Source of the DNA: an uncultured delta proteobacterium
Lineage (GTDB): Bacteria; Desulfobacterota; BSN033; UBA1163
Length of the DNA stretch: 64,000 nt
Assembly (NCBI GenBank): GCA_963827685.1
Contig: CAWHBU010000004.1
Span: 192,001-256,000 of the forward strand
Direction of reading: 5' to 3'
Part shown: piece after piece, positions 1,851 through 53,440 of the stretch
Layout: every line of letters starts with the position of its first letter
How positions within the stretch are numbered: the stretch's first letter is position 1
Translations under genes and position numbers: made by a program
The notes under the pieces: model-generated
The model's input: the letters and a program-made list of their open reading frames with translations, nothing else
What the model was told of the DNA's origin: nothing
Databases searched by the model: none

Positions 1851-3272
1851 ATGGCTGGCATTATTTCATATGGGGCTTACATACCTTTATATAGATTAAC
1901 GCGGGCGGAGATTTCTAAAAGCTGGGGCAGGCCACCCTTGCCTGGTGAAAAGGCGGTCGCAAATTTTGACGAGGACAGCTTGACTATGGGTGTAGCTGCA
2001 GCTATGGATTGCACAATGGGGATAGATCGTAAGACTATCGATGGCTTATACTTTGCCTCGACTACTTCACCGTATAAGGAGAAACAGGCCGCTTCTACCA
2101 TAGCAACAGCACTGAATCTGGATAAAAAAGCATTTACAGTAGACTTCTCTGGCTCTCTGAGAAGTGCGACAAATGCAACGAGAGCTGCCTTAGATGCCGT
2201 AGTTGCGGGTTCAGCCAGAAGCGTCTTAGTCTGCGCTTCCGATACCCGTTTGGGGTACCCTAATGGGGATAACGAGACCTCTTTCGGTGATGGAGCTGCT
2301 GCCATTCTTGTAGGCAACACAAGTGTTGTTGCCACAATCGAAGGTAGTTGTACCGTTTACAATGAGATGATGGATGTGTGGAGATCAGATAAGGACGATT
2401 TTGTTCTGGCCTGGGAGGATCGATTTATCTACGAAAAAGGATACACCAAAGTTGTTTCTGAAGCAATTTCCGCTGCCTTGAAGGAGTATAACTTGACCCC
2501 CAAGGACTTCTTTAAGGCTGCTTTGTATGCACCTAATCAACGACAACTTGGTGTAGTGGCCAGAAAGATTGGATTTGATTTGAAAACCCAGATCCAAGAC
2601 GCTTTACTTTCAGAAGTGGGTAATACCGGTACAGCCTTGCCATTGATGTCTTTGGTGGAAGCTTTGGAGGAGGCTAAAGCGGGGGACAGGATACTCCTTG
2701 CTAGCTACGGCGATGGGTGTGACGTTTATATGCTGAAGGTGACCGATGAGATAAAGAACATCAGAAACAGGCGAGGGATAAAGGGACATCTGACGCCAAA
2801 GCAAATGCTGGCTAGTTACCAGAGATACTTGGTTTGGCGTGAGTTGGTTGAAACTGAACCGCCGAGACGCGTACCACTAAATAAACCATCGGCAGTAGCT
2901 TTGTGGAGGGATAATAAGGGAGGGTTAGCCCTCTACGGGGTTAAGTGCAAGCGCTGCGGCACACCACAATACCCTAGTGTGAGAATATGCAGGGTCTGCA
3001 AAGCTAAGGATGAATTTGAAGAATACTGTTTCGCTGACAAAACAGGAAAGATAACTGCTTTTACCAATGACAACCTGGGCGTTTCGCCTGATCCTCCGAT
3101 TAGTGTAGCTGTAATTGATTTCGATGGTGGAGGAAGGATGTTCTGCGACGTGACTGATCGAAGGCCTGAAGATATTAAGGTGGGGACAAGAGTTGAGATG
3201 ACGTTCAGAAAGATTCGGTACGTAGGCGGCATTTACGACTATTGGTGGAAGTGTCGTCCGCCAAGAAGCTGA
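1851..3272 (+). CDS. HMG-CoA synthase/FabH-like protein fused to C-terminal DUF35 Zn-ribbon/OB-fold
   Basis: GIISYGAYIP, DEDSLTM, GDGAAA, GNTG, SYGDG; C-terminal CKRC..CRVC plus OB fold; AGGAGG RBS before ATG 1851. Confidence 0.88.
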   Translation: MAGIISYGAYIPLYRLTRAEISKSWGRPPLPGEKAVANFDEDSLTMGVAAAMDCTMGIDRKTIDGLYFASTTSPYKEKQAASTIATALNLDKKAFTVDFSGSLRSATNATRAALDAVVAGSARSVLVCASDTRLGYPNGDNETSFGDGAAAILVGNTSVVATIEGSCTVYNEMMDVWRSDKDDFVLAWEDRFIYEKGYTKVVSEAISAALKEYNLTPKDFFKAALYAPNQRQLGVVARKIGFDLKTQIQDALLSEVGNTGTALPLMSLVEALEEAKAGDRILLASYGDGCDVYMLKVTDEIKNIRNRRGIKGHLTPKQMLASYQRYLVWRELVETEPPRRVPLNKPSAVALWRDNKGGLALYGVKCKRCGTPQYPSVRICRVCKAKDEFEEYCFADKTGKITAFTNDNLGVSPDPPISVAVIDFDGGGRMFCDVTDRRPEDIKVGTRVEMTFRKIRYVGGIYDYWWKCRPPRS

Positions 3273-8403: not shown

Positions 8404-8561
8404 CGGGTGAGATTTCTTAAGGTAGGTCGAATGCCCCCTCTAAACACGAACTCCCCAAAAGTGCAGCGGGAAAAATACTAAGGAGGATCTTAGCAGAGGG
8501 GAAGAAATCGGCCACGGAAGGTGATAATAAATCGAAATGATTGCGGAAAGGAATTCAAAAC

Positions 8562-9750
8562 GTGAATGAAAGAGATTCTATAATTGTTTCTGCTGTGAGA
8601 ACCCCGATCGGCACCTTTGGAGGTTCGCTCAGGGATATCCCACATGAAGGATTGGCGGCTGCCGTCATGGGAGAAGTTTGTAATAGGGCTAGCTTCCCGA
8701 GAGAAGAGCTTGATGACATCTATTGGGGTGTGGTTATGGTTCGGAGTGACGAAAATGGCCTCGCACGTTCCGCAGCTTTAACTGCAGGAATACCAGACCA
8801 TGCCTCTGCCGTACAGGTCAATCGGGCTTGCTGCTCATCTATGGAGGCTATCAGGATTGGGTCCATGGCCATCCGCCTAGGGGAGGCAAACGCGATTATT
8901 GCCGGAGGCGGAGAAAGTATGAGCAACGTCCCCTATTCAATTAAGAACGGAAGATGGGGGTTGAGGCTTCGTCATCAAGAACTGACTGACGGTGTATGGG
9001 ACGGACTCACTGATCACCATACAGGTCTTATCATGGGGATGACTGCAGAGAATGTTGCAGAAAAATATAATATTTCGAGGGAGGATCAGGATAAGTTTTC
9101 CTACGAAAGTCAGATGCGGACCAAAAAGGCAATTGAGGAGGGAAGGTTTAAGGATGAAATCGTACCGATTAAGGTACCTGGAGAGAAAAAAGGGGAATTC
9201 AAGATGCTAGACACGGATGAATATCCGAGGCCAGGGACGACATTGGAAGGGCTGGGGCAAATTACCTCCCGCGTTCAAGAAAGAGGGTACGGTTACGGCA
9301 GGGAATTCATCTGGGATAAACGATGGAGCCTCTGCTATCTTGGTTTTATCCAGAAAAGTTGCGGACAGGTTTAATATCAAGAGAAAGTGGAGAGTTGTGG
9401 GTTCAGCAGCAATGGGTGTGGATCCTAGAATTATGGGGATTGGACCGATCCCGGCAATTAAAAAGCTTTTAAAACTGACTGGATATGATCTCAAGAAAAT
9501 AGAATTGTTCGAGATAAATGAAGCGTTCGCTGCACCCTCGATAGCTGTTGAGCGAGAACTTGGGTTGAATCATGCAATTGTAAATGTAAATGGTGGTGGA
9601 ATTGCCTTAGGTCACCCAATCGGGAATTCAGGTTGTGGTATCGTGGTGAGTTTGATCCATGAAATGGAAAAACGTGGGGTGAGACTTGGGCTTGCTGCTT
9701 TATGTGGTTGTGGCGGACACGGTCAAGCCATCCTCCTTGAACGAATTTAG
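8562..9750 (+). pseudogene. acetyl-CoA C-acetyltransferase (thiolase) with one frameshift in GGGG 9254-9257; possibly an assembly error
   Basis: SAVRTPIG, VNRACCS, GGESMS; removing one G gives [24 protein letters not shown], then NEAFA, GHPIG, LCGCGG. Confidence 0.88.
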
Positions 9751-10019
9751 TTCTTCTATTCCCCCCTGAAGTCTTCTTATTAATCGATGTTCTGTAAGAA
9801 TCATTTGTGCACATCTAGGGAAAAGCCGACAAGTTGTAGAATATGTCAAACAATTTATCAAGAAAAATGTTGGGTGGAGCTTTAAATGCAACGAAAATAT
9901 CAAAAGAATTTTCCCGGGAGATAGACAGATACGCGTAAGAGTATCTATATGTTGGTGGAAGAATTTATTACCACGCGGCCCTAATGATACCCCGGATGGG
10001 GTAAAGAATCAGATAAAGG

Positions 10020-10103
10020 TGTAACCAAATTGTAACCGTCTTAACCTAAAATAATCCAAGATAACCAAAGTTATTCCAACATGGGTTTTGTAAGTGCTTG
10101 ATA
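10020..10103. promoter_or_regulatory. probable att-arm sites and IHF site left of the tRNA-Leu fragment
   Basis: TGTAACC direct repeat at 10020-10026 and 10031-10037; TAAGTGCTTGATA at 10091-10103 matches the IHF consensus WATCAANNNNTTR on the minus strand. Confidence 0.5.
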
Positions 10104-10148
10104 TTTAACACATTGAAAATGATGGGAAATCGCCTGATTTGAGTTATC

Positions 10149-10207
10149 GACTTAAAATCCCTCGGTGGCCCCCCACCGTGCCGGTTCAAGTCCGGCCCTG
10201 GGCACCA
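10149..10207 (+). other. 3' fragment of tRNA-Leu(TAA); probable island attachment junction
   Basis: GACTTAAAATCC anticodon loop, long variable arm, GGTTCAAGTCC T-arm and CCA end; no D-arm or 5' acceptor strand upstream. Confidence 0.85.
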
Positions 10208-10275
10208 TGAAAATAAAGGGTTTTCTTGATATTGCAGGTTTAAGACGCAAGCCCTTTTTTCTTGTATCAACCCAT

Positions 10276-10297
10276 CCAGTCCCCACCCAGTCCCCAC
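10276..10297 (+). repeat. perfect 11-bp tandem CCAGTCCCCAC x2; probable integrase arm-type sites
   Basis: Seen directly, about 70 bp from the tRNA fragment; related CTTCCCAC/TTCCCCAT repeats occur at 12083-12110. Confidence 0.55.
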
Positions 10298-10377
10298 TTC
10301 TTCAACAATGGTGACAACCTGGACAGCACAGGCAGGATAAAAGGAAGCCTCCGTATTCACAACCACCATCCCCACCC

Positions 10378-11380
10378 TCTCTCCTTCATCGCACGATCGA
10401 CGACTTCTCTCACATGACGTTTTATGACGTTTTCTGTAGGAGCGGAGGGAATCTGGGAGCAAGAGGATCCTGAGGAATGGACGCCTCGGAGTATGTGCGC
10501 AGGGCTTGAAATTCTGCACGTTTTGAGGCGCCAAAGGCACAAACTCCCTCTTCCCCTATCCCTTTACCCCTAACCCGAGAGGACTACCCTTTTGTCGGCC
10601 TCTGTAGCCCCTTCCTGATAGCGTAGGAGGGGGTTTAGACGAGTCCTGACGGTGTGGTCTGGGAATCACCAGGGAGTTACTTCAATCGGTGTGGCCCCCA
10701 ATCTTCCGAAGGCGCTCTTTTACCTGATTTTCGATAGCCTCTGCAACCCAACTTTTATTAACCATCAGATAGTCAAAAGGTGAAGTTTTGTGAATGAGTT
10801 GAGGACTCCGACCTGCCAAAGGTGGGTTTCTTCCTCCCTCTGAATAGCTCCCATCACGAGTGTATTTTTGTGTATAAGATGGTAAGCAATCTCCCTGTCG
10901 GTCTGCACTCCCGCCCTGTGGAGATGGTCCTTCCTCGCTTTCTTAATCGCTTCCGAAACTAAAGTTTTCTTAAGTAGTTGGTTCGCAATAACATCGGCTT
11001 TTACTTCAGTTTTCTTCAGTAGTTCACAGGCAATCTCGGCAGCTATTTGCTTATTTTTACAGCGATAACCAGCACGTATTACAGCTTCGCTTCCATCTGC
11101 TTTTTAATCGCCTCTGAAACCCAACTTTTCCCAACCAGCATCGCCCGATTGACAGCTTCTCTCACTGGAGTTTTATGGAGCAGCTGGTAGGCCATCTCGG
11201 CGGCACGCTGGTCATTTTTGACTCGGAAGCCAGCACGCTTTACGGCCTCGCTTCCAACCCAAGTTTTACCAAGCAGTTGATCCGAGTAGAATAAACTTTT
11301 CTTAACCACTCCCTTACCTGTTTTTTCCCCTGCAAAAAATAATAAAAAGTCTTTCCGAGGGTGGAATTTTATGGAGTTTC
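10378..11380 (-). repeat. array of concatenated phage terminase small-subunit (terS) fragments; putative pac-site array
   Basis: Minus-strand translations repeatedly give the TerS helix-turn-helix segment (AVKRAGF..AAEMAYQLLHKTPVREAV; AVIRAGY..ELLKKTEV; QLLKKTLVSEAIKKA; ENVIKRHVREVVDRAMKER and others), each with a 10-bp-period direct repeat. Confidence 0.8.
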
Positions 11381-11551
11381 TTATTGTTTAACAGAATTTT
11401 GTTTAACAACAATATTCCATCCAGCCCCTATGATCTCCCAAATAAAATCTGTCAGGGTTTCTTTTCTCTTTTGAGCCTCCTCGATGATTCTTTTCTTCGC
11501 GGCGGGAGGGACTCGAATCGCTATTATTTGAGTCCTTCTTTCTCTGCTCAT
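11381..11551 (-). CDS. small ribbon-helix-helix (CopG/Arc-like) DNA-binding protein, 56 aa; absent from the ORF track
   Basis: MSRERRTQIIAIRVPPAAKKRIIEEAQKRKETLTDFIWEIIGAGW...; alternating beta-strand, helix, (T/S)L(T/S)DFI helix pattern; GAGGAGAGGAAGGA RBS. Confidence 0.65.
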   Translation of the reverse strand: MSRERRTQIIAIRVPPAAKKRIIEEAQKRKETLTDFIWEIIGAGWNIVVKQNSVKQ

Positions 11552-11741
11552 TCCTTCCTCTCCTCTTCGCTGAGTCCGCTGTTCGGTGGCTTCTGGATCG
11601 GGGTGGCTTCGAGAATTATCACCGTTTTACCGCCCGCTACCGCCCCCGTTTTCTTAGGCATCAATCCCGGAAGCACCTTAGAATAAAAGTCCAGCCATCC
11701 GCGCCAGTTCTTCGCCGCTCCAAGTCCGGCAGGTGTTTTTT
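11548..11741 (-). pseudogene. 3' part of a decayed phage-like ORF translationally coupled to the RHH gene
   Basis: Open frame ...AAKNWRGWLDFYSKVLPGLMPKKTGAVAGGKTVIILEATPIQKPPNSGLSEEERKE* ends in an ATGA overlap with the RHH start; no start codon in frame. Confidence 0.35.
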
Positions 11742-12205
11742 GTTACCCGTTGGGCTTTCCCGGTTGACGATCGCTCCCAACACCCGTTTGCAATCAAGTG
11801 CAACTTATCCCTCCACCGCCTGCCGGGATCAGACCCTTTGCCTCCCTGTTTCGTATGCCCACTGGGCAAACATCGTTCTTGGTCTACCATCGCCTTTGAA
11901 ATCCGTCACCCATATCGGCCCATATTTTATGCAAAAACTTACGCAAAAACACCCCAATGGGCAACCTCAATCTAATATTCCTCACTTTGTCAGGGGTGGT
12001 TTGACTTATAACCAATTCAGATCCTCTCCGGAAAAACAATGGGAAGGCTCCCCAGGTATTCTATCTGAAGCAGTTGGTCTGCCTTCCCACTTCCCACTAT
12101 TTTTCCCCATTTTAAGTTGCAAAATATGTTATACTGTGATAATTATCATTACAAAATGGGTGAATCGTTTCGCTAACTTATTGAAATTATAAATGGCCGC
12201 CTATT

Positions 12206-12252
12206 GACTTCTAATCCGTGGGTCGGGGGTTCGAATCCCTCCAGGCGCGCCA
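12206..12252 (+). other. 3' fragment of tRNA-Arg(TCT); probable attR of an element integrated at the head of the tRNA cluster
   Basis: GACTTCTAATCC anticodon loop, GGTTCGAATCC and GGCGCGCCA end; 5' half absent; IHF-like TAACTTATTGAAA at 12174-12186. Confidence 0.85.
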
Positions 12253-12359
12253 AGGTGGGTACCAATGCAAACTGCAAAATTAACAATGCAAAATTAGCCG
12301 CGCAGTTCAATTGCTAATTGACCATTGCTAATTGACCAATTTGCAATGATCTTTTCAAT

Positions 12360-12437
12360 GGTGAGTGTAGCTCAGTTGGATAGAGCACTGGGTTGTGGCC
12401 CCAGTGGTCGAGGGTTCGAGTCCCTTCACTCACCCCA
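12360..12437 (+). tRNA. tRNA-His(GTG)
   Basis: Cloverleaf, encoded G-1, anticodon GTG, CCA end. Confidence 0.95.
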
Positions 12438-12439
12438 AA

Positions 12440-12516
12440 GCGCCCGTAGCTCAGTTGGATAGAGCGTCGGACTTCGAATCCGCAGGTCGTCCGTTCGAGC
12501 CGGACCGGGCGCGCCA
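12440..12516 (+). tRNA. tRNA-Arg(TCG)
   Basis: GCGCCCG/CGGGCGC acceptor stem, anticodon TCG, CCA end. Confidence 0.95.
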
Positions 12517-12648
12517 CCCATAAGAAACAAATGCAAATTATAAAATTAACAATGCAAAGTTAGCAGTACTGCTGAATCATGTTGAGTCGTTCAATTGCTA
12601 ATTGAGCATTGTTAATTGACCATTTTGCAATGATCTTTTTGGCGAAAA

Positions 12649-12724
12649 GAGCCGTTAGCTCAATAGGTAGAGCAACTGACTCTTAATCAGTAGGTTACAG
12701 GTTCGATTCCTGTACGGCTCACCA
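12649..12724 (+). tRNA. tRNA-Lys(CTT)
   Basis: GAGCCGT/ACGGCTC acceptor stem, anticodon CTT, CCA end. Confidence 0.95.
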
Positions 12725-12772
12725 TTTTTTAACAATTTTATCTTTTGTGCTTTTTGCAGGCGCGGATTTTTT

Positions 12773-12859
12773 GCCGGGGTGGCGAAATTGGAATACGCGC
12801 GAGACTTAGGATCTCGTGGTCGAGAGACTGTGCGGGTTCGAGTCCCGCCCTCGGCACCA
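12773..12859 (+). tRNA. tRNA-Leu(TAG)
   Basis: Long variable arm, anticodon TAG, CCA end. Confidence 0.95.
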
Positions 12860-13015
12860 TAATAAAAAGGAAATTCTAAATTCGAAGTGCGAAATCCGAA
12901 TTTCCACGAGAGCGTGAGTCGTAAGTGGTTTACCCCTCACCCTTCACGCGTTAGCCCTTACGTGTCAAGATTTCGATATTCGGATTTTGGGTTTCTAAAT
13001 TTAGAGGGATATTTC

Positions 13016-52681: not shown

Positions 52682-53440
52682 CTATTCCTGATCAGGGAAA
52701 TCCCCCGAATTAAGATTGCTATCTTCTGATTCCTTCTTCCCCGATTCCAGCAGTGCCAGGACCCCCCTATATTCCTCCCGGGAGAGTTTGCGGTAAAGAT
52801 GGTAAAAGAAAATACTCATGATCTCTCTTCCCTGGACAACCCTTTTCGAGAACTCCTCCGGGAGAAGCTTTCCCAAGGCGGCTTCGATGTAATATTTATG
52901 CGACATAATGACGATCTCCCGGAACTTATCCCGATAGTGCTTCAGGGCTTCGGGGTCGAACCCCTCTATGGCACCCAGGCCGATGCTATCCATTTCTACG
53001 ATCAATTTGCCAAGGGTGATATCGTCCTGCAAATAAATCTTCTCACCATTACGAACCTCTGGGGTGATAATCGCCCATTCCTCCATCTTGACCAACCATT
53101 TCCTTCCCAAGCCCGTTGCCTTGAGAAAGGGCTCCTCACCTGCTATCTCGTTCGGCAGAAACTGGTCTATGGGCCTGAAGTACTCTCTTCGGAGATTGAG
53201 GAGAGACTGCCACTCGGAGGATTTTTTTTGCTTTTTTAAAATATTCTTGATCACTGCGAGAGGGAGGAAATGGCGATCCTGAAGTTCTTTGATGAAGCGG
53301 ATGCGTTCTACATAGTCTTCATCATATTCCGCAATGTTCCTACCCCTCTTGTGGGGCTTTGGTAGGAGTCCTTCCCGGATGTAAAAATGAACGGTTTCTT
53401 TTGATACCCCTGTGTGCTGAACTAAATCTCGGATCTTCAA
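52682..53440 (-). CDS. MerR family transcriptional regulator
   Basis: MKIRDLVQHTGVSKETVHFYIREGLLP. Confidence 0.9.
   Translation of the reverse strand: MKIRDLVQHTGVSKETVHFYIREGLLPKPHKRGRNIAEYDEDYVERIRFIKELQDRHFLPLAVIKNILKKQKKSSEWQSLLNLRREYFRPIDQFLPNEIAGEEPFLKATGLGRKWLVKMEEWAIITPEVRNGEKIYLQDDITLGKLIVEMDSIGLGAIEGFDPEALKHYRDKFREIVIMSHKYYIEAALGKLLPEEFSKRVVQGREIMSIFFYHLYRKLSREEYRGVLALLESGKKESEDSNLNSGDFPDQE

Follow-up and report, generated by a model that had tools for sequence, protein, structure and literature searches.

How pac-type small terminases (TerS) choose their own DNA is a long-standing open question, and in the current view of SPP1 and SF6, TerS selects DNA shape with hardly any reading of sequence. 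The question is raised again by a locus in the 64,000-nucleotide stretch of DNA analyzed here (the window; contig CAWHBU010000004.1 of an uncultured delta proteobacterium). Directly downstream of a gene for a ribbon-helix-helix (RHH) protein, intact terS is absent from the window, and where the gene should be, about 11 pieces of the TerS DNA-binding domain are strung in tandem. Every fragment covers the codons for the end of helix 3 (L-L-x-K-x-x-V), and each carries a short word that recurs 10 bases on. TerS residues from about 22 to 69 are the only ones present in this array, with frame changes and stops between the units, and the fragments do not make up a whole terS gene with DNA-binding, oligomerisation and C-terminal parts. 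What is the paired word for, and how did so many of them come together?

The units were confirmed by profile matches to be fragments of the TerS (Terminase_2) helix-turn-helix (HTH), as an earlier reading of the letters alone (the sequence-only reading) had proposed. The translation of u6-u8 scored 29.7 bits on Terminase_2 (PF03592), above the cut-off of 26.1 bits, and that of u2-u5 17.6 bits, under the cut-off; in a genome-wide profile search, neighbouring one-frame array matches gave 27.8 bits on Terminase_2, and the PHROG family phrog_51 (terminase small subunit) also matches array fragments. All units are on the minus strand. The outlying helix-3 fragment u11 (10375..10440), which reads RHKTSC / VREVVDRAM in two frames, has a perfect 10-base tandem as its core (ATGACGTTTT twice, 10414-10433), a weak N-terminal profile match of 5.4 bits, and YDLRHKTSCV as its nearest full-length allele (7/10 residues). 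Unit u10 (10688..10764; 23.5-bit profile match) covers residues about 44-69 (MVNKSWVAEAIENQVKERLRKIGGH), has the weak core AAC at 10750/10760 and is nearest to the allele LLGKPWVAEAIEKQVKERLRRIGVN (17/25). It is followed by u9 (10765..10803), a core only (LIHKTS) with the word GTGAA at 10780/10790, and by u8 (10804..10899; 25.4 bits), which spans residues about 27-66 (REIAYHLIHKNTLVMGAIQREEE), carries GTGTAT at 10860/10870, has ...AYHLIHKNTLVMEAIQREEE as its nearest allele (21/26) and is 85.5% identical in DNA to L122. Units u7 (10894..10998; residues about 36-69, DVIANQLLKKTLVSEAIKK...; 35.1 bits) and u6 (10993..11097; residues about 22-49, SEAVIRAGYRCKNKQIAAEIACELLKKTEV; 33.6 bits) carry CTAAAGT/CTTAAGT at 10959/10969, with one mismatch, and CTTCAGT at 11004/11014, respectively; u7 agrees with its nearest allele at 18/25 residues, and u6 is 84% identical in DNA to L115. 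Unit u5 (11082..11138; residues about 43-61, LVGKSWVSEAIKKQMEAKL; 12.7 bits) bears CCCAAC at 11120/11130, matches its nearest allele at 17/19 residues and is 94% identical to C2:709444-709490. Units u4 (11139..11255; residues about 22-57, GSEAVKRAGFRVKNDQRAAEMAYQLLHKTPVREAVNRAM; TGGAG at 11166/11176; nearest allele EMAYQLLHKTPVQEALDRAM, 17/20) and u3 (11256..11282; DQLLGKTWV; CCAAG at 11259/11269; nearest allele DQLLGKTWVSE, 9/11) jointly give a 47.3-bit match, u3 being about 27 bases long with little beyond the core. The last two units are cores only: u2 (11283..11309; about 27 bases; VVKKSLF) has TAAAC/TTAAC at 11292/11302 with one mismatch, and a search for a close full-length allele found none (best 4/10), while u1 (11355..11380; KLHKIPP; family D8) has TGGAA/TGGAG at 11362/11372 and begins immediately past the RHH stop codon. 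The two shortest fragments, put at 24 bp in the sequence-only reading, measure about 27 bases. Units u3-u8, u10 and u11 each resemble a different allele known from full-length proteins.

All 11 pairs listed in that reading were found at their plus-strand coordinates: seven exact pairs with TTTT between the halves (ATGACGTTTT, GTGAA, GTGTAT, CTTCAGT, CCCAAC, TGGAG and CCAAG), two that differ by one base (CTAAAGT/CTTAAGT and TAAAC/TTAAC) and two short ones (AAC, 3 nt; TGGA, 4 nt). The paired halves occupy different codon phases, again as claimed. Exact 5-mers that recur at lag 10 across TTTT occur at nine sites in the 64-kb window, seven within 10414-11269 and the remaining two at 53222 and 60101. 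With TTTT and AAAA counted alike, which implies both strands, the genome of 5,228,624 bases has 230 of these sites, and the array region, C4:202413-203258, is its only cluster of at least three sites within 600 bases. An AAAA/TTTT run is present in all 11 units, between the halves in ten and within the 10-base tandem word in u11; it is the AAA codon of the lysine together with an adjoining A.

The row of fragments could be an assembly artefact, strain alleles of one terS strung together, the genome being metagenome-assembled with 7.98% contamination and many terS alleles coexisting in similar habitats. We consider this very unlikely. Independent Logan contigs span several units: the contig from run X1 covers 10665-10940 (four units) with 0 mismatches, that from run X2 covers 11128-11365 (five units) with 3 mismatches, and a diverged contig from X3, a run of another study, has the order RHH-u1-u2-u5-u6. 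Moreover, the unit boundaries are not allelic, and the units cover differing ranges of TerS residues. The locus is present in 20 sequencing runs, none of those listed an RNA run and all of them in the form of contigs, in which molecule ends are not visible.

The flanks of the array point to its source. On comparison with metagenome satellites (L101, L131), window 10375-12095 (minus strand) is evidently what is left of the RHH-terS module from a small integrative phage satellite. The RHH-like gene (11381..11551, minus strand; an ORF of 56 residues with weak NikA-like and phrog_22139 matches) precedes terS in related satellites, and its DNA is 80-88% identical to the terS-upstream gene in C2, L011 and L101-L131. 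The upstream region of the module (11552..12095, minus strand), in which no convincing intact ORF was found in the window, was recognized by its homology to L101 and L131; window 12095-11396 has 87% identity with L101:2116-2803 and L131:2200-2912, two loci whose terS begins at 3001. After the last array unit comes a conserved non-coding segment (10450..10687, unstranded) that is common to the second terS locus of the genome (window 10450-10764 and C2:709158-709489, 74% identity over 337 bases). No Rfam match with E <= 1 was found for this segment, and the same threshold gave four tRNAs and chance matches only for window 9500-13000, none of them in the array. Alignment with tRNA-Leu identified 10149..10207 (plus strand) as a 3' fragment of a tRNA-Leu(UAA)-like gene that extends from its anticodon stem to CCA, and ARAGORN found no whole tRNA there; the fragment is 94% identical to C7:229226-229294. 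By alignment, the same fragment adjoins the satellite terS modules in L101 and L108, and it represents an att-like remnant on the border of the element.

An intact related satellite lies in the same genome at C2:707.4-715.5 kb. This island has an integrase (Phage_integrase match, E = 6e-27), a replication-like protein of 463 residues (sole match Sigma70_r4_2, with the C-terminal end), an RHH gene and a TerS of 209 residues, the full-length terS (707490-708119; 102.2 bits on Terminase_2) being followed by an unrelated gene and, further downstream, by an IS256-type transposase; terL and capsid genes were not found in it. PICI/SaPI-type satellites carry their own terS and redirect helper packaging; in the C2 island, too, terS is accompanied by an integrase and a replication-like gene, and terL and capsid genes are missing. 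Between them, island and window remnant are small, have an integrase at one end, show terS but neither terL nor capsid genes, and have a tRNA-type attachment, and the window remnant resembles a decayed PICI-like phage satellite. No helper phage was identified.

Does the paired word belong to the array, or to terS itself? Among 119 distinct full-length terS genes, 64 have an exact lag-10 repeat of at least 5 bases at the same codons, with 46 different words, and lags other than 10 give 1-8 genes each. The first word begins in codon 43 or 44 and recurs exactly 10 bases on, in another codon phase; its start falls at reference bases 124-130 in 61 of the 64 genes, and the genes in which the position of the pair is held span 28-100% identity. 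As the sequence-only reading had observed in the window, the word varies by allele while both halves stay alike. The run of at least 5 bases is present in 32 of the 36 genes that are 50% or more identical to the C2 TerS and in 32 of the 83 genes that fall short of 50%. A 75-gene set gave the same picture, with at least 7 of 8 matches at lag 10 and a first copy starting in codons 42-46 in 21 genes, and 0-2 genes for each other lag from 3 to 24 and for each other 5-codon block.

At residues i and i+3 of the helix, L tends to go together with T/A/P/S, V with S or G, I with N, K with E or Q, and G with W, and the pairing might be a by-product of this protein constraint plus codon bias, with no function at the DNA level. 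Permutation of synonymous codons, the check proposed with the sequence-only reading, keeps a little signal (mean best 8-base match 3.9 at the site and about 3.3 elsewhere). However, we give this explanation next to no chance. With protein and codon usage fixed, runs of at least 5, 6 and 7 bases, observed in 64, 49 and 23 of the 119 genes, occurred in means of 9.2, 3.1 and 0.8 genes and maxima of 19, 9 and 4, so that the position-specific, lag-10 repeat stands far above the permutations; 500 synonymous permutations of the 75-gene set averaged 1.5 genes and never exceeded 5. The effect is confined to lag 10, and the co-varying residue pairs are exactly those that the genetic code predicts from a 10-base shift. 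Furthermore, the allele LIHKNSLV exists in two DNA versions, CAT...TTG and CAC...CTT, which form a compensatory synonymous pair. Protein conservation is therefore insufficient for the pairing, as had been argued earlier, and the paired words are a DNA-level feature of the helix-3-end codons in intact Terminase_2 terS genes. Fixed in position, embedded in codons and written in dozens of words, the pair appears to be kept by selection on the DNA itself. We found no earlier description of such a codon-embedded pair in the open-access literature.

The expectation that the repeat would predict pac sites for the whole TerS family was too broad. Fifty-five of the 119 genes are without a pair of at least 5 bases, a run of this length is absent from 6 of 10 cultured phages, and no pair was found in the TerS-like gene of the C6 prophage. 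Each gene has two copies only, and within 600 bases on either side 30 words have 6 extra copies, compared with about 10 expected. A ring of 8-12 HTH domains might need more than two copies of the word. In the 260 bases 5' of terS in 37 close relatives, a helix-3-type core (ACTTCA...) was found in C2 and L101 only; L114, L123 and L022 each have one unrelated lag-10 repeat of at least 6 bases in this interval.

The position of the pair suggests what may read it. With the family profile, matches were obtained to three structures of the SF6 small terminase (3ZQP, 4ZC3 and 2CMP), the lysine of LLxKxxV aligns with SF6 Lys48, and the codons of the pair bracket the codon of this lysine. According to Greive 2016, the K48A mutation of SF6 abolishes DNA binding, and the HTH motifs of neighbours in the TerS ring are about one B-DNA turn apart. 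In our judgement, which leans slightly to the positive side of even, two adjacent HTH domains of the TerS ring would dock on the pair from one face of the helix, and reader and site would be inherited jointly as a module of about 20 bases.

SPP1 is the sole relative with a mapped pac site. In SPP1 (pacL-pacC-pacR; gp1 is a Terminase_2 protein), genome coordinate 1 marks the principal pac cut (Godinho 2018, Figure 1 legend) and, as in the terS genes studied here, the site lies within terS, pac overlapping the part of gene 1 that encodes the gp1 DNA-binding domain, as given in Godinho 2018; PMC4856287 describes direct repeats and binding of gp1 to pacL and pacR, that is, to both sides of the cut. 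In NC_004166.2 (SPP1), coordinate 1 falls within the codons TIAA|EN, and CGCACGT occurs at bases 19 and 29, in the codons P-H-V-R-A-R past the homologous lysine. The cut is 8 bases 5' of the homologous codons and the lag-10 repeat 19-35 bases downstream of the cut, in line with the proposal that pac sites lie in the DNA encoding the TerS DNA-binding region; the SPP1 repeat, which we take to be the published box c, sits one period downstream of the pair position of most genes. The pair thus shares with the SPP1 type of pac its place inside the codons of the terS DNA-binding domain, at the Lys48-aligned position, and its direct repeats about one helical turn apart, at lag 10 only. A poly-A tract beside the repeats is reportedly needed for SPP1 cleavage; pacR including its two repeats can reportedly be degenerated without loss of cleavage, and just a 5-base poly-A tract is said to be required. 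All 11 window units have the AAAA/TTTT run described above, and family-wide AAAA lies inside the pair in 29 of the 64 paired full-length genes and is missing from the other 35, so that the A-tract is not the general part of the feature that it had been taken for. By analogy, the pair would be the counterpart of the pacR side in SPP1; its place would be a few bases downstream of the pac cut, and the end on which it lies would be the first to be packaged. The SPP1 repeats have been described for one phage and its close kin, whereas the pair described here is fixed in position and embedded in codons family-wide, with allele-specific words.

The same constraint on the DNA might serve something other than TerS, namely another protein, a recombination signal for module exchange or templated slippage correction, and we regard this as improbable. 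Greive 2016 points to little sequence specificity of TerS in SF6 and SPP1: on its own, the DNA-binding domain of SF6 showed no preference for sequence in binding pac segments of SPP1 and SF6, and the direct repeats of SPP1 pac, named boxA/B/C, are given little role by the authors. The published tests leave the repeat sequences little or no role, and this work also speaks against TerS docking in which the words are read strictly. Several fragments and the truncated terS of G013 break at the same conserved segment, RLRKIGVH, and the contig of another study has its joint exactly between two cores, joining 11135 to 11274, the positions at which two different cores begin. However, the neighbouring RHH gene keeps its conservation across satellites with different words, the pair is also present in distant phages, and the words are variable; therefore a partner protein that stays constant would not fit them. 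By itself, slippage correction would fail to fix one codon position across such a span of identity and so many words, and between the two words lies the codon for the one residue proven necessary for DNA binding. Other candidates were dropped: integrase arm-type sites or iterons, as the words differ between units; a transposon footprint or 10-base duplication, as the second spacer is unrepeated and the Lys codon belongs to the gene; and ribosome hopping, as the intact gene has no need of a frame change.

With respect to the view that TerS selects DNA shape, the word pair is a direct argument for sequence reading by at least two HTH domains. If it is the TerS site, it would provide a simple rule by which, for roughly half of the Terminase_2 genes sampled, both the point of pac recognition and the direction of packaging could be predicted, explain how specificity is swapped between phages and satellites as a tiny module, and give a handle for predicting transduction-prone host regions. 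In P22-like phages, pac is also inside terS (P22 gene 3, Sf6 gene 1), and the idea that site and reader travel together comes from the Casjens laboratory. The site in the reader's own gene and the horizontal exchange of TerS DNA-binding types are the same there, but the TerS belong to other families and the sites are not known as a lag-10 pair in recognition-helix codons. Short repeated words are read by the small terminase at the R sites of lambda cosB and the hexamers of P1 pac, where several dispersed copies go with other folds and positions; here there are exactly two, one turn apart, on the codons of the reading helix.

Fragment arrays are present at both terS loci of this genome (window and C2) and in 0 of 54 other genomes of the family. 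A search of genome contigs for related loci with one protein gave 2 loci only. Among 61 metagenome loci, a second helix-3 match was found in two (L108, L133), weak at 10-11 bits; a search of viral contigs gave 23 loci with a helix-3 match, and more than one match in L010 only, which is the C2 locus of the genome itself. Because fragment arrays were found in this genome alone, we infer the origin of the array from one case. With a chance that we put a shade below even, the array was built by repeated recombination at or beside the core between co-circulating terS alleles, followed by trimming. It would then be a leftover of the turnover of DNA-binding (specificity) modules, and unequal crossing-over between similar cores may still be reshaping it, as the core-to-core joint in the contig of another study would suggest.

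The array might also be kept by selection, as a bank of cores for nine or more TerS specificities that aids the packaging of the terS-less remnant and host DNA or acts as a decoy for foreign TerS; we consider this unlikely, if deserving of attention. The core is present in all 11 units, u1, u2, u3 and u9 have little beyond it, no unit is made solely of other terS parts, 7 of the 11 pairs are still exact despite the lack of an intact gene, and a diverged version of the array exists in the sample of another study. Furthermore, the piece that forms u9 also lies 54 bases 5' of the intact terS start in C2 and L101 (window 10764-10794 and C2:708141-708171, 97% identity). Its terS-upstream copies read ACTTCAT twice in L101 and ACTTCA in C2, and this non-coding core is altered in both halves between L101 and the window, which has TTCAC twice. 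Against a selected bank, arrays occur in one genome only, and core-centred pieces would also be left by a process that begins at the core, for example cutting by terminase or recombination among similar cores. Neither terL nor a helper phage whose allele would match was identified, and in the C6 prophage the TerS-like gene is without the pair. SaPIbov5, which has both pac and cos signals, is a precedent for a satellite with more than one packaging signal. An array of many allele-specific cores in PICI/SaPI satellites was not found described in the open-access literature, and the accessible parts of Boyd & Seed 2024 and Humphrey 2021 hold nothing on site architecture; as far as could be found, the array is the first example of many specificity cores gathered at one locus.

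A bolder reading, which we think doubtful, unites site and bank: the roughly 20 bases at the recognition-helix end would be the sequence read by the same helix in a large part of Terminase_2, a portable, self-referential packaging-specificity cassette, and the array would serve as a working store of nine or more of these cassettes, letting the terS-less remnant and adjacent host DNA be packaged by, or titrate, any circulating TerS allele. The explanation that we prefer, comprising a satellite remnant, a codon-embedded pair, TerS docking and an array formed by module turnover, has as a whole about an even chance of being right. The array also recalls the tandem arrays of tRNA and tmRNA gene fragments that are reportedly left by serial integration of genomic islands. 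In both, partial copies of one gene from different incoming elements lie beside a tRNA-type attachment fragment. The tRNA fragments, however, start at the crossover point and are explained by the integrase, whereas the terS fragments are centred on the helix-3 core, with ends that vary on both sides.

All eleven pairs of short words named in the sequence-only reading were recovered on the plus strand where it had placed them. Seven of the eleven are exact, with words of 5-10 bases at a lag of exactly 10 and TTTT between the halves; two have a one-base difference between the halves, and in two the word has just 3-4 bases. The 64-kb window has nine sites where an exact 5-mer recurs at lag 10 across TTTT, and seven of these fall within 10414-11269; the whole genome (5.23 Mb) has 230, and the array region is its sole cluster of at least three within 600 bases. 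The observation thus stands, and chance is far from accounting for it. In minus-strand orientation each pair is made up of a word of 5-7 bases, xAAAA or AAAAx, the word again and GT, so that codon i recurs as bases 2-3 of codon i+3 and base 1 of codon i+4. Minus-strand translation of the array (10375-11380) gives repeated pieces of the N-terminal helix-turn-helix (HTH) domain of the small terminase (TerS), which we number u1 to u11. Against the Pfam Terminase_2 cut-off of 26.1 bits, the u6-u8 piece passes with 29.7 and the u2-u5 piece falls short with 17.6; a match to PHROG phrog_51 (terminase small subunit) agrees with the assignment. On the profile of the family's N-terminal 75 residues, the units cover approximately TerS residues 22-57, 43-61, 22-49, 36-69, 27-66 and 44-69. 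The seven codons L-L-x-K-x-x-V at the end of helix 3 (the core) are present in every unit, and the paired words are those codons; u1, u2, u3 and u9 hold little else. Each of u3-u8, u10 and u11 is like a different allele known from full-length TerS proteins.

The intact terS gene on contig C2 of the same genome has the core CTC CTA CAG ATT CCT ACA GTT (LLQIPTV), which contains TCCTACAG + AT + TCCTACAG, an 8-base word at lag 10 without an A-tract. We sampled terS genes from IMG/VR (best 80 of 216 relatives) and from metagenome contigs (61 loci). In a first set of 75 distinct genes, 21 matched at 7 or more of 8 positions when compared at lag 10 from a first copy that begins in reference codons 42-46. 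The other lags from 3 to 24, and the other 5-codon blocks along the gene at lag 10, gave 0-2 genes each. When synonymous codons were shuffled within each gene, which leaves protein and codon usage unchanged, 500 trials averaged 1.5 such genes and never gave more than 5. In a combined set of 119 distinct genes (L157, aberrantly aligned at the site, was left out of 120), exact lag-10 runs of at least 5 bases were found in 64 genes (permutation mean 9.2, maximum 19), of at least 6 in 49 (mean 3.1, maximum 9), of at least 7 in 23 (mean 0.8, maximum 4; 300 trials each) and of at least 8 in 16; runs of at least 5 at lags 7, 8, 9, 11, 12 and 13 were found in 1-8 genes. The synonymous shuffle, proposed as a test in the sequence-only reading, therefore clearly favours constraint on the DNA itself. 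The A-tract that this reading had emphasised did not hold up as a general part of the pattern: it is the Lys codon, and is missing from 35 of the 64 full-length genes with the pair.

The lag-10 pair is common, not universal, in the sampled terS genes. Of the genes with at least 50% identity to the C2 TerS, 32 of 36 have it, and of those below 50%, 32 of 83. Among the 64 pair-bearing genes there are 46 distinct words, and 61 have the start of the first copy inside one 7-base span. LIHKNSLV, the only amino-acid motif in the sample with two DNA versions, differs between them by a compensatory synonymous pair, CAT with TTG versus CAC with CTT. Four of ten cultured phages (Mannheimia 587AP2, Clostridium phiCTC2A, Staphylococcus PMBT9 and Streptococcus O1205) have a run of at least 5 at the site; none was found there in the other six. 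The Uetakevirus terS genes of Salmonella phage 65FD (L168) and E. coli phage phiV10 (L169) have no pair at the helix-3 codons; their lag-10 repeat, AACGCA(A), lies in codons K-R-K-S-T-Q of an N-terminal extension. That pac sites lie inside terS, and that the SPP1 pac region contains direct repeats, is already known. In the open-access literature we found no description of a lag-10 word pair embedded in the codons at a fixed position across the Terminase_2 family, with words that are allele-specific and held by selection on DNA.

Among solved structures, the family profile matches those of the SF6 small terminase (3ZQP, 4ZC3 and 2CMP), and it aligns SF6 Lys48 with the K of LLxKxxV. Passages of Greive et al. 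2016 (PMC4737164) report that Lys48 occupies the position of a base-contacting residue in related HTH proteins, that K48A abolishes DNA binding, and that neighbouring HTH motifs in TerS rings lie about one B-DNA turn apart. For SPP1, passages of Godinho et al. 2018 (PMC6316719) describe pac as overlapping the gene 1 sequence for the gp1 DNA-binding domain, both pacL and pacR as bound by gp1, and genome coordinate 1 as the main pac cut (Figure 1 legend). Coordinate 1 of NC_004166.2 lies in codons T-I-A-A|E-N, eight bases before codons N-M-Q-K-P-H-V, and CGCACGT stands at base 19 and again at base 29, which places the repeat one period further downstream than in most genes; these are presumably the published box c repeats. 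The SPP1 record (L100, L099) also contains CTATTGCGGC twice, 36 bases apart, in gp1 codons AIAA and TIAA, the second copy including coordinate 1; we take this repeat to be the published box b.

By the most economical reading, the pair is a candidate docking site on the pacR side of the cut, where two HTH domains that are neighbours in the TerS ring would bind. Such a site would sit on the DNA end that enters the capsid first, and the TerS reader and its site would be inherited as one short module. Passages of the SF6 study speak against this reading: the isolated SF6 domain bound the pac segments without preference for any (Greive et al. 2016, PMC4737164), and the sequences bound at pacL and pacR are described as having no identity in common (PMC4856287). 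It also counts against docking that no further copies of the word were found near the pair, with two copies only per gene, and that a run of at least 5 is absent from 55 of the 119 genes, as is the A-tract from 35 of the 64 with the pair. Djacem et al. are said to have found in 2017 that SPP1 pacR, its two repeats included, could be degenerated, and that cleavage reportedly needed only a 5-base poly-A tract. If so, the cut in SPP1 does not depend on the words, which would instead act at a later step, on efficiency or in competition.

Helix-3 matches of at least 10 bits in this genome are confined to the window locus (seven) and C2 (two: the intact terS gene and one fragment 1.4 kb upstream). 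No helix-3 fragments were found around the terS genes of viral contigs and no arrays of them in 54 other genomes of the family. Among the 61 metagenome loci, L108 and L133 have a second helix-3 match, a weak one of 10-11 bits. Nor did we find a locus collecting many such cores described in the open-access literature. One Logan contig (run X1) spans 10665-10940 with zero mismatches and another (X2) spans 11128-11365 with three. On a diverged contig that comes from another study (X3), the ribbon-helix-helix (RHH) gene, u1 and u2 are followed by a joint between 11274 and 11135, which connects two cores first base to first base. The array is thus no artefact of this assembly, and has been remodelled by core-core exchange. 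Between 10690 and 11310 on the minus strand, the frame, as judged from the three translations, is preserved across six of the eight boundaries from one unit to the next, where chance would give about one in three.

The conserved segment RLRKIGVH, the border of the TerS DNA-binding domain with the remaining protein, is the end or start of u7, u8 and u10, and likewise of the C2 fragment and of a truncated terS from a genome of another genus of the family (G013). We therefore favour an origin in which specificity modules would have been replaced repeatedly through recombination at or beside the site and then trimmed. That the core is kept in all units, four of them being the core alone, would fit equally well with a bank of cores under selection, for multi-specific packaging or as a decoy. 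In G013 (L012, contig C21, ~1253-1900), the C-terminal part of terS starts exactly at ...IGVHAE, with the C-terminal end of a tyrosine recombinase gene directly before it on the opposite strand; the domain border may be an insertion or recombination point.

The array starts directly after the stop codon of the 56-residue RHH gene (11381-11551, minus strand), and the 700 bases upstream of the array are 87% identical to the pre-terS region of metagenome contigs L101 and L131. A tRNA-Leu(UAA)-like 3' fragment lies at 10149-10207, and the same fragment stands beside the modules in L101 and L108. The intact module on the minus strand of C2 comprises a tyrosine integrase (Phage_integrase, E = 6e-27), several small genes, a 463-residue protein with a C-terminal sigma-70 region-4-like HTH, an RHH gene and the 209-residue TerS (102 bits on Terminase_2), followed by an unrelated gene instead of terL. 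This gene architecture matches that described for PICI-type phage satellites. The window locus is most simply a decayed copy of a C2-like satellite, its terS apparently replaced by fragments.

Both fragment loci share a segment of ~320 bases (10450-10764; C2:709158-709489; 74% identity) that follows a unit ending ...IGxH-TD-stop and precedes further helix-3 remnants; no ORF or Rfam match was found in it, and no copy in related loci. On C2, about 1.1 kb (708478-709560) between an upstream ORF (...WLDFS) and the RHH gene of the intact satellite contains this shared segment together with two helix-3 fragments and a Cys-rich protein of 167 residues without a Pfam match; it looks like an insertion, because the ORF and the RHH gene are contiguous in L011. 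The ~550 bases upstream of the RHH gene (11552-12095; L101:2116-2650), 87% conserved between satellites with no convincing ORF, could be a regulatory region or RNA. A 73-base part (12027-12099) also lies upstream of a TerS-like prophage gene on contig C6 of the same genome (139104-139176, 84% identity). In the metagenome satellite locus L116, the RHH gene region occurs twice upstream of terS (1773-1985, 2834-2973).

Elsewhere in the window, a thiolase (acetyl-CoA acetyltransferase-like) frame at 8541-9750 is split into overlapping ORFs (8541-9374, 9217-9750), which is a frameshift, pseudogene or sequencing error. A 48-base stretch at 12206-12253, identical to positions 148021-148068 of the same contig (C4), has very high depth and unrelated flanks in many metagenome contigs. 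It lies just ahead of tRNA-His and resembles a piece of a tRNA gene or a repeat derived from tRNA.
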